A stretch of DNA of 64,000 nucleotides from an uncultured Candidatus Saccharibacteria bacterium (GTDB taxonomy: Bacteria; Patescibacteriota; Saccharimonadia; Saccharimonadales; Saccharimonadaceae). A program made the position numbers. Positions 6,001 to 12,000 of this stretch are shown in pieces (the stretch's first letter is position 1; the number at the start of each line of letters is the position of its first letter). The DNA is taken from NCBI GenBank assembly GCA_946404545.1, contig CAMJDZ010000003.1, positions 5,808 to 69,807 on the forward strand, in the 5' to 3' direction.

Positions 6001-9000
6001 TCTGAGTAGCGCTACCGCTATCGGCGTATTTCTTAACATGGGCGCCATAAGACCTGGCCGACTCGGTCCAAAGCTTATCGCTCACCTTAACCGGCAGACC
6101 GTAATCATCATAAATCTTGTCGATAGAATAGCCGCCTTCTGGGAACGACTCTTCGATATCGTCGAGCAGATTCTGAACTTCATCTTCCTGGCTCGAAAGC
6201 AATGCCGTATTGCCAGTCGAACCGCCAGTAACACCGCCAGATTCACCGCCCTTTGCTGGGTTCAAAAGCAAAATCGCAAGCCAAACACCAAGTCCAGCCG
6301 CAATTAACGCGAAGACGATTGCAAGTATTACAGCGCCCTTGCCGCCCTTCTTTGCGGCTACCTGCGCAGTTGGTTCGTATTCCCCACTTTCCATTAGTAC
6401 CTCCCTAAATTACTTATGCCTATTATACTACCAAACCACCAAAAAGCGCCCATTTCGGGCGCTTTTCGGTTACAAATTCTGTAAGTATTCGGCAAGCTTC
6501 TCGAGCTTCACCTTTTCTTCCGAATCGCGCAAGCGGACGGAAACTTCGCCAGCCTCTGCATCCTTCGGGCCAACAATCAAGACGCAAGGAATCTTCATCT
6601 TGGTTGCCTCGCGAATCTTCTTACCAAGGCTCTCGTTGCGCTCATCGACCGTATAGCGAATCGCGCGGTGCTCAAGCGGCTCATTAATCTCGGTCTTGTC
6701 GAGAATCTCACGAATCTTCGCGGCATAATCTGCTACCGAATCATTGATCGTAAGCACGCGTACCTGCTCTGGCGCCATCCAGAATGGGAACCAGCCAGCC
6801 GTATGCTCAATAAGCACGCTCATGAAGCGCTCAATCGCGCCAAGCAATGCACAGTGAATCATAATCGGCGTCTTCTTGCTGCCGTCTTCGGCAGTATATT
6901 CGAGACCAAAGCGAGTTGGCGTTGCATAATCTAGCTGTACCGTTGCCACCTGCCACTCGCGGCCTAAGGCGTCCGTTGCCATGAAGTCCATCTTTGGACC
7001 ATACATTGCGGCTTCGCCAATACCAATAAAGTATTCGATCTTGTGCTTGTCGGCCATCGCCTGAATTGCGCTCTGCGCCTTCTCCCACATCTCTGGCGTA
7101 CCAGTATAGCCGTCGCCATCATCGCGGAAGCTAAGGCGGAGTTTGAGATCCATATCAATGCGACCATAAAGGTCCTGCGCTGCGGCAATTAATTCGCCAA
7201 AAATCTGGCCAATCTGATCTTCGGTACAGAACACATGCGAATCATCCTGCGTAATCGAGCGAACGCGGCTAAGACCACCAAGCTCACCCTTGCGCTCATC
7301 GCGATAAACCATCGTCGTTTCGAGGTACTTGATCGGAAGCTCGCGATACGAACGTGGCTGCGAAGCAAAAATCTGCGAATGATGCGGGCAGTTCACCGGC
7401 TTCAAGGCCAAGTGGTCGCCAGATTCCTGGCTAACAAACTGCAACATCTCCGGGAATTTCTCATAGTGACCAGAAGTCTTATAAAGGTCAACGAGCGCAA
7501 TATGCGGAATACAAACCTTCTGATAACCCGCCTTGATGCGATAACTCTGCGAGAAATCATTCAAAATATCGCGGAGAATCGTGCCACGAGGCGTAAACAT
7601 TGGAAGGCCGGAGCCAACCAAATCCGAGAAGCAGAACAAATCGAGTTCACGACCAAGCTTGCGGTGATCGCGCGCCTTTGCTTCTTCCTGTTTCGCGACA
7701 TATGCGTCGAGTTCTTCCTGCGTTTCAAAAGCGAGACCATAGATACGAGTGAGCATTTCGCGCTTCTCGTCGCCGCGCCAGTAAGCACCAGCAACCTTAT
7801 CAAGCTTAAATGCGCCAACCTTGCCGCTATCCTCGACGTGTGGGCCCTTGCATAAATCTTCAAACTCGCCGAGCGTATAGAATGAAATCGTCTCATCCTC
7901 TGGCAAATCGTTAATGAGCTCAGCCTTGAACTTCTGGCCATTCTCCTCTGCCCATTTCAATGCCTCAGCACGCGACTTCTCGCCGTAAACCATCGGCACT
8001 TTCTGCGCAATAATCTTGCGCATTTCTTTTTCGATCTTCTTCAAATCTTCGTCGGAGACCTTCACGCCACCGAAGTCGATATCATAGTAAAAGCCATTAT
8101 CAATGGCAGGGCCAACACCGAACTGGATTGTTGTTGTGCCAGCATAAATCCTCTTTACCGCTGCAGCCAAAACGTGGCTAAGCGTATGACGTTGCTTCAT
8201 AACTAGTGATTCTTCTGACATCGCTGCCCTTTCATTTAAATTAGTACCCCTATATTTTACCACATTTCTATCTGGTAGAGGCGAGAATCACAAAAAGGCT
8301 TTATTCCACTATGTATGGATTCGTCTTAGTCCCCTCACCGGAAGCATATTCCGTGCCAGCCTTCAGAGAAACCACCGGGCTTATCATGCGCCTATTAAAT
8401 GTCTGGCTATGACCTGCCTTATCAGACCAGCTAAATACATAGCCACCCTCGTAAGAGAAATAGCTCGGAGAACCAGTCCATAGATTATAGTGGTTATAAA
8501 TATAGTTCGTATTCGCTACGTTCGTAACGTTTGTACCGGCAAGCGTTAACTCGTCCATCGTAATAAGGCCGATTTTATGCTCCAACTTGCCGTTACCGTT
8601 CGTCGTATCATCCTTCGTGAATGCATCATTCTTATTTGGACAATCAAGGCTAGGCGCGTAGTTGTTTGAAGAATTCTTTACATAGTTACGAGTGTAAGCA
8701 CCCCATCTATTTCCGCTAGTTCCATTTGAGTCCTTACCCACTAACGCACCAGACGTAAAGGTGCGATCGTTGCAATATATCGCATCCTCCAAGTCGTCCT
8801 CGTAATTTCTAGTGCCATCAATATGGCCATCAAGATTTTTCTGCTCGAACCATGTTTCTACGGCTACCTTCACCTTACTGTTATTCGTATTAGCAAACCA
8901 CGCCGCTTTTGCCGCCTCAATATCATCGTGTCCACCGATGTTCAGATAATAAAGTGCCCCATTATTGCCTTTGACGAGGTTATAGGCAATTTTCGAGCTA

Positions 9001-12000
9001 TCGCAGCTAGTCGCACCATCCGTGCAAAAATAATGGTAGCGCGTCACCGCTTCCGACACGATGCTGGTCCAAACGCCAGTGATATACTGGCCTTCGTTCA
9101 TATCTAGAGTATAAGTATTGCCATTGCGGCTCACATTATTTGAAAGTGTCACAATATTCTGCCCAGGATATATACTGGCATACTCTACGCGTTCGCCATA
9201 CATATACCCCATATCAGAAGGAGAGGAGTTAACCTCGGTTGGTGGATAGGTCCAATCGTACGTCGTGCCAACCTTTATACCAACATCCTTCCCGGTAGCA
9301 AGACATTGCCTCACGCCATCAACCTCGGTCGGCTCGCCGTTATAAATCATCTTCGTACCGCCCGTTGCCGTCGTACGTATAATCATCCAGCACAAGTCCG
9401 CCCAAATCACATTATTATCATCGACGGCACCGCGATAATAGCAAACTTCTTGGCCATTCTCGGTGTATCCATTTACGCCATTACCGTTTGCAGTCGTCAA
9501 ATCATCAGATTGTATCGCTTTTTTCGTGAAATTAATCTGAAAAGTCGGATCAACCACTCTGTCGCACACGATTGTCGCAAGCGCCCTACTCGGCTCGTTA
9601 TTGCTAGCACCCTCTTGAGCGGTTTGAAAAGTAACTTTCAAGTGATACTTTGCCTTTTCGTAGTCATTGGCTGGCTTTTCGCAAACCGTGCCAGTCGCAG
9701 TATTCGTGCAGACGTTATCGGCGCCAAAGTTTGCTTGGCAGTCGAGCTGAACGGCCCTGAGGAGCGAGGTCGTCGTTGCACCAGGAGCGAGGTTCTCTTT
9801 ATAGTAGTACCAACCATCATTTCTGAGTTCCCAATCACTTTCATTTTGCGTAAGAATGACCGCCAATCTGACGCCGTCTTTCTCCAATGGGAGATCCTGC
9901 GTATCGGCATCATCGCGCCACCATTCGTCAATCTTCATGCGCACCGTAACTGGAACATTGCCGGAGTTCGTCAGCGTCGCTACTTTCGGAGTTTCTTCGC
10001 ATGGCGACCAGTTATCTGGGCTCGAGAAGCTCTCTTCCGCTACTGTCTTATAATTTGCGAATGCGAAATTATTGTTGAACACCGCCGTATCAAAACCATA
10101 CGCAACCACCGCGCCAATCCCAGCAATAGCAATCAAGGCTACGGTCGCAATAAGTGGCAGGCGTTTTTTATTGAAAAACTTTTTCACTTTCCTCCTAATT
10201 TCGTACGCAATACTGCTTCTGCTTTAATAATACCATGTTTTTATGTTATAATCACCCTGTTATGGGTCGCTAGCTCAGTTGGCTAGAGCGCCTCGTTTAC
10301 ACCGAGGAGGTCGGGGGTTCGAGCCCCTCGCGACCCACCACGACTATTAAATTCCCCACAAAAAAGAGGGGTATTTTTTATGCCCCTCTTACTGCTTCTT
10401 TATTATCCTAAAAACAGTAGTAGCTGTGTTATTGATTGCACCGTCAACCGTTTCGACTTTCTCTTTTTCATACACATCAACAAAACCTAACGGCCTCAAA
10501 ATCGATTCCATTTCTTCTTCCGTTTGGCAGTTTACATAAAGGACCTTCTTTCCGTTTTCTCCCAGATACGGCTCATCAGTAAACTCCTCGCCATTCCCTA
10601 ATTGGTATGACATGAGAATAACGCCATTTTCCTTCAAAATATCATGCGCATCGGATAGAACTTTACGAAGGTCGTCTTTTGGCAAATGGAATAAAGAATA
10701 GACCGCAAAGACCGCGTCTACAGAACCGCTTTCAAAGTGGTTCTTTATATTCACCATGTCGTCGAGAATATACGGAAATTCGCCATGAATTCTAAAGGCC
10801 TCTTCTTTCATTTTTGGCGAAAAATCTAGCCCGATGTAGTCGTATCCCTTCTTATTAAAATAGGCATACGTTCTACCGGTGCCAGCACCCAAATCCAATA
10901 TCGTCGCGCCTTTTGGCAGCTCCTTTTCAAACGCTTCGTAAGCGTCCAAATCCTCGATAAAAGTTCCGAAATCCTTCCCGTATTGCTCCGCAATCAGGTC
11001 GTAATCTTTTTTGACGCTATTTCGTTTTTCTTCCGAATTCATAACCTACTTCTCCCCGTATAGCCGCTTATACTTCCCTAGATTCGCCTTGTCGTATTTC
11101 GCCGCGCGACTCATGCGTACATAAAGCGCCACCGTCAGAAGCGCTTTTTTATAGCTCAATTCATAGCCATCAAAGAATCCCAAGAAATAGTCCTCGCTAA
11201 GATCCTCAAATATATCCGCATCGGATAGAATTGCAAAGTAAAAATCATAAAGCCTATCCCCTACTACTGGCATCGGGTCAATTACGCGAATCTTGCCATT
11301 TTGCAGCAAAAAATTATGCGTGCCAAAATCGCCGTGCATCAGATACTGTTTTGGCGCAAAATCACCAATCTCATCGACTGCCGCCAGCACTTTTGCCTGC
11401 GAAATCTCTGGAATCGTACGCGCCGCATAGTCAATTTCATCAAGTAAAAACTCACGCCACGTTGCTTTCTCGTCGCCCAAAAAGCCATACTTATCGTAAG
11501 TATATTCCGGGTAGCTTTCGACAATGCCCTTTATCTGTAAAATCGCACTTTTTGGCTCGATTAGCGAGCCATCGTAATGCTCGCCATCAATGAACTCAAA
11601 GCATTCGTAGCCAAGCCCTTCATTCCAGCATAGTAGCTTCTGAAAAACGCCATCTGGCACCCGTTCGAGGAACTCGCGCTGCGTTTGAATTGTCCGTAAA
11701 TCCGAAATCTTAATCAAGTATTTCCCACCGAGGCTAAACACCGTTGCGTCCGTCGCGCCATCGCTATAAAAAACCGCTGGCAAATCATGCAAGCGCGCAC
11801 CGAGTTGGCGCTCGATATCATGCACGATCATCAATTGTTCGGCGTTTAATTCCATATCCATATTCTAGCACGACAAAAGCCGGACATTACCTGTCCGGCT
11901 TTCTTGGCCTATACGGCCGTAACTCTGTCTCGGGAGTGGTCATCTTGAACTCGTTCATTTACAACAATCTCAGGAGAATCATAATCATTCATAATCTCCA

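Follow-up and report, generated by a model that had tools for sequence, protein, structure and literature searches.

What is the function of the large C-terminal module that follows a BsaA/TasA-like module in three proteins encoded within a single stretch of a Saccharibacteria genome? The stretch in question (the window, 64,000 nucleotides) covers positions 5,808 to 69,807 of contig CAMJDZ010000003.1 from GenBank assembly GCA_946404545.1, which comprises 0.80 Mb in 21 contigs and is ~95% complete, and the three genes are referred to here as A1, A2, and A3. The evidence suggests that this module of ~430 amino acids is an extracellular ligand-binding head (an adhesin or receptor-binding domain) on a BsaA/TasA-like scaffold, an assignment to which we give a probability of about two in three. 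Binding is favored over an enzymatic role because diversity-generating retroelements (DGRs) target homologs of the head at the stretch that is most variable in the Saccharibacteria family. The genes and their parts are as follows.

8301-10187, minus strand: A1 gene, open reading frame (ORF) of 628 aa
10053-10187, minus strand: A1 residues 1-45, signal/transmembrane and donor-strand region
9606-10052, minus strand: A1 residues 46-194, BsaA/TasA-like module, followed by a linker (residues 195-199)
8304-9590, minus strand: A1 head, residues 200-628, 429 aa, a single compact domain in the AlphaFold2 model
47700-49691, plus strand: A2 gene, 663 aa counted from the TTG at 47700; translation more likely begins at the ATG at 47718
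~48348-49688, plus strand: A2 head
57240-59132, minus strand: A3 gene, ORF of 630 aa
~57243-58589, minus strand: A3 head

A Common Head in Three Proteins

The original prediction described a long C-terminal module shared by three paralogs. The ORFs are present where it placed them, and formal alignment shows that the C-terminal regions are homologous. The C-modules of A2 and A3 share 30% and 46% identity with that of A1, and 88 columns are invariant in a MAFFT alignment of the three copies. A genome search with a profile built from A1-A3 returns these three at E-values of 1e-200 to 1e-234, so the homology of the heads lies far beyond chance. Profile search of the assembly yields six head copies, each located behind a BsaA-family N-module; the copies outside A1-A3 are at C12:6404-7675, C18:1424-2686, and C18:27-830, the last of which is truncated by the contig end. 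The nearest named proteins come from metagenome-assembled genomes (MAGs) of Candidatus Saccharibacteria.

The boundaries predicted for the module hold up well. The A1 start at 9590 corresponds to residue 200, directly past the only linker that AlphaFold2 models with low confidence (195-199), and base 8304 is the final base ahead of the A1 stop codon; the boundaries given for A2 and A3 are right to within ~10 residues. Six conserved blocks had also been listed. Blocks 3-6 recur letter for letter in A1, A2, and A3 (LEDxxxCxDR, xxC[PG]xxNDxFT, GxxTxDExxxAG, and xPVVSLKxGT...PYI), while blocks 1 and 2 also exist but had been listed with slight transcription errors, as block 1 in A1 reads EVCYYRG rather than [VP][CV]YY[YF]RG and block 2 in A2 reads THIYSCD.

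The full-length A1 model, built with 72 homologs, has a mean predicted local distance difference test (pLDDT) score of 86.8, with values above 90 in the head and values below 50 solely at residues 1-44 and 195-199. When the head is modeled by itself (83 homologs), pLDDT rises to 96.3 with a predicted template modeling score (pTM) of 0.94, suggesting that the head is a single rigid unit. The A1-A3 heads and the family profiles have zero matches in Pfam, NCBIfam, and PDB sequences, and Foldseek comparison of the head-only model with the PDB gives a best E-value of 0.58, with none at E<=0.001. Consistent with the original prediction, the head belongs to no named family at Pfam thresholds, and the searches of Pfam, NCBIfam, PDB sequences, and Foldseek return no confident match to a well-characterized domain with a mundane role. 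Full-length A1 likewise gives only weak Foldseek matches in the PDB (best E 9e-3) and nothing for the head; these matches (Ena fibers, the Caf1M chaperone, and viral capsid jelly-rolls) are taken as look-alikes of the N-module. A Foldseek search of BFVD produced nothing solid, with a DUF6273 phage protein at rank 31 (E 9e-3, TM-score 0.18).

Diversity-Generating Retroelements and the Variable Stretch

Known DGRs diversify ligand-binding surfaces, and the C-type-lectin fold serves as their variable binding scaffold, as in the variable proteins Mtd of a Bordetella phage and TvpA of Treponema. Reverse transcriptases (RTs) were sought in genomes rich in the head module, and a complete DGR is found at L106:1851-5877 (G151:C11, Ca. 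Scybalousia, Bacilli). This element consists, in order, of the target gene encoding P0387, a 110-nt template repeat (TR), a MutS_I-like ORF, bAvd (PF22296, 45 bits), and an RT of 374 aa. The TR and the variable region (VR) differ at 12 of 110 nucleotides, and all 12 differences fall at TR adenines, in AAC/AAT codons; given 28 A per 110 nt, the chance of such an outcome is ~7e-8. P0387 possesses a SipW-like N-terminus and a long head that aligns with A1 residues 250-627, including the lobe described below (E 5e-36).

Another Bacilli genome contains a second element (L104:1351-3649, G153:C1), which has 15 of its 16 differences at TR adenines and is adjoined by a homologous RT. The Bacilli DGR targets are SipW-signal proteins bearing the head. 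A probable third TR/VR pair is located in a short form of the module (L017:6765-7325), with 21 of 27 differences at TR adenines. No RT was detected in L017 by tblastn with the L106 RT, and the pair may represent a remote target or a second TR; the L017 TR, at 7213-7325, resembles that of L104. The RTs of G152 and G153:C6 have no TR/VR pair in the flanks examined.

The VR of P0387 spans residues 513-550, which correspond to the following stretches of the three window proteins.

8373-8471, minus strand: A1 VR-equivalent, residues 573-605, 33 aa, beta-hairpins between W..SP and (R/S)PVV
49500-49616, plus strand: A2 VR-equivalent, residues 601-639, 39 aa, unrelated in sequence to those of A1 and A3
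57315-57464, minus strand: A3 VR-equivalent, residues 557-606, 50 aa

Three independent observations from the Saccharibacteria side lead to the same stretch as the DGR VR. First, the alignment columns of the Saccharibacteria head family reach their highest entropy at A1 580-600 (3.1-3.4 bits, compared with 0.7-1.6 bits in the conserved blocks). Second, the VR-equivalent stretches of A1, A2, and A3 are of unequal length and cannot be aligned. Third, comparison of A1 with its 94%-identical ortholog P0005 places the densest differences of the head at 573-605, with 0.18 substitutions per residue as opposed to 0.03-0.065.

In the same ortholog pair, the BsaA-like scaffold has 0.195 and the signal region 0.29 differences per residue, compared with 0.03-0.065 for most of the head. 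A scaffold that diverges faster than its head runs opposite to the simple prediction of a conserved stalk with a variable tip. It could be argued from this pattern that the head has no specific ligand and is a structural cap or spacer of TasA-like fibers, in which the variable stretch reflects relaxed constraint or evasion of immunity or phages: the hairpins could be unconstrained surface loops, and the BsaA module of close orthologs does diverge faster than the head (0.195 versus 0.03-0.18 substitutions per residue). We regard this explanation as very unlikely, as adenine-directed hypermutation of exactly this stretch in homologs is costly machinery for a function rather than drift, the remainder of the 430-aa domain is strongly conserved, and the head is reused on unrelated scaffolds.

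An active DGR in the window genome was considered and rejected. A search of the assembly with RVT_1 gave no match, and the window contains no template-like repeats of the VR-equivalent stretches; diversity in this Saccharibacteria genome is carried by paralogs and not by a DGR. The comparison with Mtd and TvpA is therefore a partial one. As in those proteins, the C-terminal variable region stands directly ahead of a conserved terminal strand, and both P0387 and the L104 target are genuinely targeted by a DGR, as the TR and VR differ in an adenine-specific manner and are accompanied by bAvd and an RT in L106 and by an RT in L104. In contrast, the window genome lacks a reverse transcriptase and the window a template repeat, six fixed paralogs carry the diversity, and the head has no detectable sequence similarity to PDB entries.

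Core, Lobe, and Conserved Cysteines

Gut Bacilli ("Tenericutes"/RF39-like MAGs) contain a short form of the head of ~285 aa. P0070 and P0093 each contain two such modules in tandem, and their BLASTP alignments skip A1 residues ~290-433. Since the short modules lack ~296-433, the head can be divided into a core (A1 ~237-295 plus 434-628) and an insert of ~140 aa.

9303-9479, minus strand: N-terminal beta-hairpin part of the A1 core, residues 237-295, also present in the short Bacilli modules
8889-9302, minus strand: lobe inserted in the A1 core, residues 296-433, beta-rich and containing a single helix, bearing C388/C395
8304-8888, minus strand: C-terminal part of the A1 core, residues 434-628

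The N-terminal part of the core carries the motif YYRG...VIWADxCWxIIRTTxTGGxKMIYNG...C in A1, and the C-terminal part carries SxxK..W[FY], LEDxxFCNDR, NDxFT, GLITxDE..AG, W..SP, RPVVSLK, and PYIV.

Six cysteines (C266, C295, C388, C395, C472, and C516 in A1 numbering) are kept in 94-100% of 83 family members. C388 and C395 are confined to proteins with the inserted lobe, while C266 and C295 are jointly absent from P0387 and the L088 protein, both of which retain C472 and C516. Because the cysteines appear and vanish in pairs, the three pairs probably form disulfides that staple the head. The extracellular disulfides originally proposed are thus supported only indirectly, by strongly conserved cysteines that are gained and lost pairwise.

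Relationship to DUF6273 and Other Lectin-like Domains

DUF6273 (PF19789) is a C-type-lectin-like domain found in Firmicute surface proteins and phage receptor-binding proteins, and it is often a DGR target. Its Pfam profile has 172 positions and a gathering threshold of 23.5 bits. A1-A3 do not match PF19789 at E<=1, and the best score among the head copies of the genome is 16.8 bits, for C18, over profile positions 122-171. Many short modules match positions ~125-171 around the gathering score, with P0123 reaching 30.6 bits, and two bridging Bacilli proteins cover more of the profile: L086 matches positions 1-111 (35.6 bits) and L088 matches positions 42-170 (23.5 bits). The short-module profile A5 aligns by hhalign with L086 over 181 columns (probability 95.6%, E ~1e-8) and with L088 over 201 columns (probability 94.3%, E ~1e-7). 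The long-head profile, compared directly with L086, aligns over 41 columns (probability 65.7%), the alignment being short because the inserted lobe breaks it; the hhalign matches to this DUF6273-positive protein include the N-terminal part of the core.

From these transitive bridges we conclude that the head core is a far-diverged relative of DUF6273, as judged by sequence profiles, and that A1-A3 are not members of the Pfam family. The relationship is one of superfamily level and not of membership, since A1-A3 fall below the threshold and their short-form homologs reach the cut-off. A PF19789 search of 151 Patescibacteria genomes gave no match at E<=1e-5. The framework of DUF6273 is recognizable in the head as a beta-hairpin (WRI..G..KLI), a helix (S.IK..ID.WY), the GL.T.DE helix, and W..SP, followed downstream by variable hairpins and the RPV.SL final strand, and the DGR variable region of the homologs is located at the same position. 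The head differs from DUF6273 in being 2.5x longer than the 172-position profile and in adding the ~140-aa lobe, an N-terminal extension, and the three conserved Cys pairs.

Among the non-significant Foldseek matches to the head are several C-type-lectin-like structures, namely the C-terminal domain of Lcl (8q4e; E 0.94, TM-score 0.34 over 79 columns), LOX-1 (E 1.4, TM-score 0.31), and CD23 (E 2.9). The order of secondary-structure elements in the modeled head core appears compatible with a C-type-lectin-like fold, and the assignment of such a fold relies on the sequence-profile bridges because Foldseek gives no significant match. The best of these lectin-like matches, the Lcl C-terminal domain of Legionella (Lcl_C/DUF1566), is also a weak hidden Markov model (HMM) match of the homolog P0093 (E 0.018), and Lcl too is an adhesin head on a fibrous stalk. 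However, Lcl is built on a collagen-like trimer, whereas the A1-A3 heads are attached to a TasA-like module.

Binding or Catalysis

Some of these results weigh against a binding head. The DGR evidence comes from another phylum, at 28% identity; A1-A3 reach no Pfam threshold; and the lectin-like Foldseek matches (E 0.9-3, TM-scores of 0.3 over 80-100 columns) are not significant. In addition, about ten charged head residues are invariant or nearly so across the 83 members (R252, R271, K279, K440, E467, D468, D474, R475, D521, D545, and E546), and residues of this kind would also suit a catalytic or metal site.

The last of these points is the basis for viewing the head as an enzyme whose substrate is an extracellular polymer, for instance a peptidase or a hydrolase of glycans or peptidoglycan. 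On this view, the active or metal site would consist of the acidic residues of LED...DR, NDxFT, and TxDE, and substrate access alone would be tuned by the variable hairpins. The wider C-type-lectin/FGE-like fold class does include enzymes, and an epibiont feeding on its host cell would gain from wall-degrading tips. Nevertheless, Pfam, NCBIfam, PDB sequences, and Foldseek provide no catalytic-family match, the motifs GLITxDE, W..SP, and RPVxSL are superfamily-wide framework motifs common to DUF6273-positive binding modules, and DGRs, which are known to diversify ligand-binding surfaces, target homologs of the head. We consequently consider an enzymatic head improbable. A candidate SxxK active site (S437/K440) was dropped, as no family match supports it and the residues belong to a helix motif found also in DUF6273-like proteins. 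Of the two roles left open in the original prediction, "binding or enzymatic," binding is the one favored by the DGR diversification of homologs in the stretch that is most variable here.

Scaffold and Proposed Fiber System

The N-modules were compared with TIGR04090, the family of BsaA SipW-dependent biofilm matrix proteins (cut-off 60 bits). The A1 module scores 80.3 bits, above the cut-off, and together with the SipW encoded in the genome this places it in the BsaA family; A2 (53.1 bits) and A3 (52.6 bits) score just below, and A2 reaches 60 bits with neighboring stretches in a six-frame search. At least 13 TIGR04090-like modules are present in the 0.8-Mb genome. The window contains the following further components.

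19668-20177, minus strand: sipW, archaeal-type signal peptidase I, 93 bits against TIGR02228 (cut-off 51.85), the only one of its type in the genome
19001-19678, minus strand: stand-alone BsaA-family protein, 225 aa, TIGR04090 121 bits, TIGR04088 signal, Peptidase_M73 23.1 bits; candidate major fiber subunit
22219-24324, plus strand: sister protein (B1), BsaA-like N-module with DUF285/PARCEL-repeat head
42234-43973, minus strand: sister protein of the same organization
45718-47715, plus strand: sister protein of the same organization (B3)

The repeats of PF03382 and TIGR02167 (BspA-type leucine-rich repeats (LRRs), DUF285-PARCEL) are absent from A1-A3. With six heads on BsaA-family N-modules and three sisters bearing DUF285/PARCEL heads, the proposal of a second, non-LRR head type on the same scaffold is borne out. 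The described members of the BsaA/TasA/CalY group (TIGR04090, PF12389) are single-domain matrix subunits. The N-module, sipW, and a stand-alone BsaA subunit are all present in the window, which differs in that its modules carry large C-terminal heads of two kinds.

In Clostridium perfringens, BsaA polymerizes by donor-strand exchange and has an N-E-K isopeptide triad formed by N35, E56, and K74 (PMC11580942). Most reported occurrences of this triad are in Clostridia, others being in Coprobacillaceae, Enterococcaceae, and Thermococcus; Patescibacteria are not listed (PMC11580942). PF12389 homologs do occur in Patescibacteria (PMC9245690). The A1-A3 family contains N39, E52, and K68, conserved in >=90% of 72 members and spaced like the BsaA triad as compared by sequence alone. 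Among the literature matches listed, none links SipW with Saccharibacteria, and the co-mentions of TasA and Saccharibacteria do not concern such fibers.

A related Saccharibacteria contig (L096:8001-17079) places a head gene 53 bp upstream of an S2-sipW operon; the SipW of this operon shares 68% identity with that of the window. The scaffold of this head protein, the first gene of the run, consists of a Sec signal, a beta domain, and a Flg_new repeat, and it is followed by proteins of 196 aa, 168 aa (SipW), 235, 225, 161, 121, 540, and 358 aa (DUF7601, weak) and by a weak sortase match. In gene sizes, the run resembles positions 14084-20734 of the window.

The near-invariance of N39/E52/K68, the synteny in L096, and the presence of sipW and a BsaA gene in the window suggest that the heads may be joined to fibers by donor strands. 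The heads could instead bind their ligand without any fiber, as monomeric adhesins that are tethered by an uncleaved N-terminal hydrophobic segment or released, with the BsaA-like module serving as a stalk only. The scores of A2 and A3 just below the TIGR04090 cut-off, the dispersal of the A genes outside the sipW operon, and the BsaA paralog BsaB of C. perfringens, which is reported to form only dimers (PMC11580942), are all in keeping with such an arrangement. It is nonetheless unlikely in view of the triad-like residues, the synteny of a head gene with the sipW operon in a relative, and the coexistence of one sipW with at least 13 TIGR04090-like modules in so small a genome. Display on a fiber remains the preferred reading.

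Family Size and Distribution

The head family is large. A word-indexed protein search with the head gave 1175 proteins at 90% clustering, of which the named ones are nearly all Saccharibacteria, and an exhaustive HMM search gave 6613 clusters at E<=1e-3 and 1707 clusters at E<=1e-30 (clusters at 50% identity). The long head has a rare and patchy distribution in GTDB species representatives: a sample taken across the phylum contains it in 1 of 301 genomes, and the organism's own family in 4 of 201 genomes, from 2 of 95 genera. The head is borne by BsaA-like N-modules and by scaffolds with a Sec signal and a Flg_new repeat (P0037 and P0010), and the C-terminal core of the head is matched 12-22 times in tandem in the giant proteins P0253 (4905 aa), P0252 (2129 aa), and P0254 (3528 aa). 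G472 and G442, which belong to the same Saccharibacteria family, encode proteins of 1500-2600 aa with the C-part of the core alone.

A profile of six short modules matched 4572 proteins and 428 genomic places, and every one of the best 80 places lies in a gut "Bacilli/Tenericutes" MAG, Ca. Scybalousia being among them. This finding substantiates the resemblance to Firmicute and mollicute modules to which the original prediction had pointed. The short modules occur in dozens of copies per Bacilli genome, and some of the proteins bearing them have a SipW-type signal (TIGR04088). One short module, searched by tblastn against 50,697 phage records, gave no match.

Locus Context

Every fiber-family locus in the window abuts a tRNA gene.

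10264-10340: tRNA-Val, 77 bp from the start of A1
50721-50795: tRNA-Arg, 89 bp from the end of the B3-A2-phosphoesterase unit
57026-57195: tRNA-Gly/His, 45 bp from the end of A3
20823-21041: tRNA-Thr/Asp, flanking the sipW operon and B1
22053-22127: tRNA-Gly, flanking the sipW operon and B1

This adjacency, together with the patchy distribution of the long head, suggests acquisition at tRNA-adjacent sites. The ORF at 49691-50632, of the size of a calcineurin-like metallophosphoesterase, begins with an ATG at 49691 that overlaps the A2 TAA (49689-49691).

Proposed Mechanism and Significance

In the proposed mechanism, the head would be exported on its BsaA/TasA-like N-module with a SipW-type signal, which the product of sipW (19668-20177) would cleave. 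The head would then probably be displayed on, or donor-strand-joined to, BsaA-type fibers whose major subunit is putatively encoded at 19001-19678. Its core (A1 ~237-295 plus 434-628) would be a very divergent member of the DUF6273/C-type-lectin-like superfamily into which the ~140-aa beta-rich lobe has been inserted, and ligand contact would most likely occur through the beta-hairpins of residues 573-605, just ahead of the conserved final strand RPVVSLK. The six paralogs, with their unrelated 573-605 stretches, may constitute a hard-wired repertoire of specificities, and candidate ligands include surface glycans or proteins, either of a host bacterium or from the animal gut.

Lectin-like binding domains of the DGR type are already known, as are TasA/BsaA fibers. 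What is new is the elaborated head, with its lobe and Cys pairs, as a large family for which Pfam has no dedicated model; its fusion to BsaA-like modules in Saccharibacteria; its occurrence in both Saccharibacteria and reduced-genome gut Bacilli; and the variation of the same surface by paralogy in one lineage and by DGR in the other. The family is very large (~6600 clusters at 50% identity), is peripheral to DUF6273, and connects two unrelated reduced-genome lineages of the animal gut.

Little is settled about how ultrasmall epibiotic Patescibacteria recognize and hold their hosts, a question on which the literature has centered on type IV pili. SipW-dependent TasA/BsaA-like modules with swappable heads represent a second candidate attachment system, in which A1 573-605 is a testable candidate binding surface, for which the DGRs that target relatives provide a natural signpost. 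A broader and more tentative proposal, which we regard as possible but doubtful, is that SipW/BsaA donor-strand fibers are a modular display with interchangeable receptor-binding heads, used independently by Saccharibacteria and by the reduced-genome gut Bacilli, and that the six paralogs are a host-recognition repertoire, traded horizontally as the tRNA-adjacent position of A1-A3 and the patchiness of the family suggest. If this is true, the host bacterium or gut surface to which the cell can attach would depend on this repertoire.

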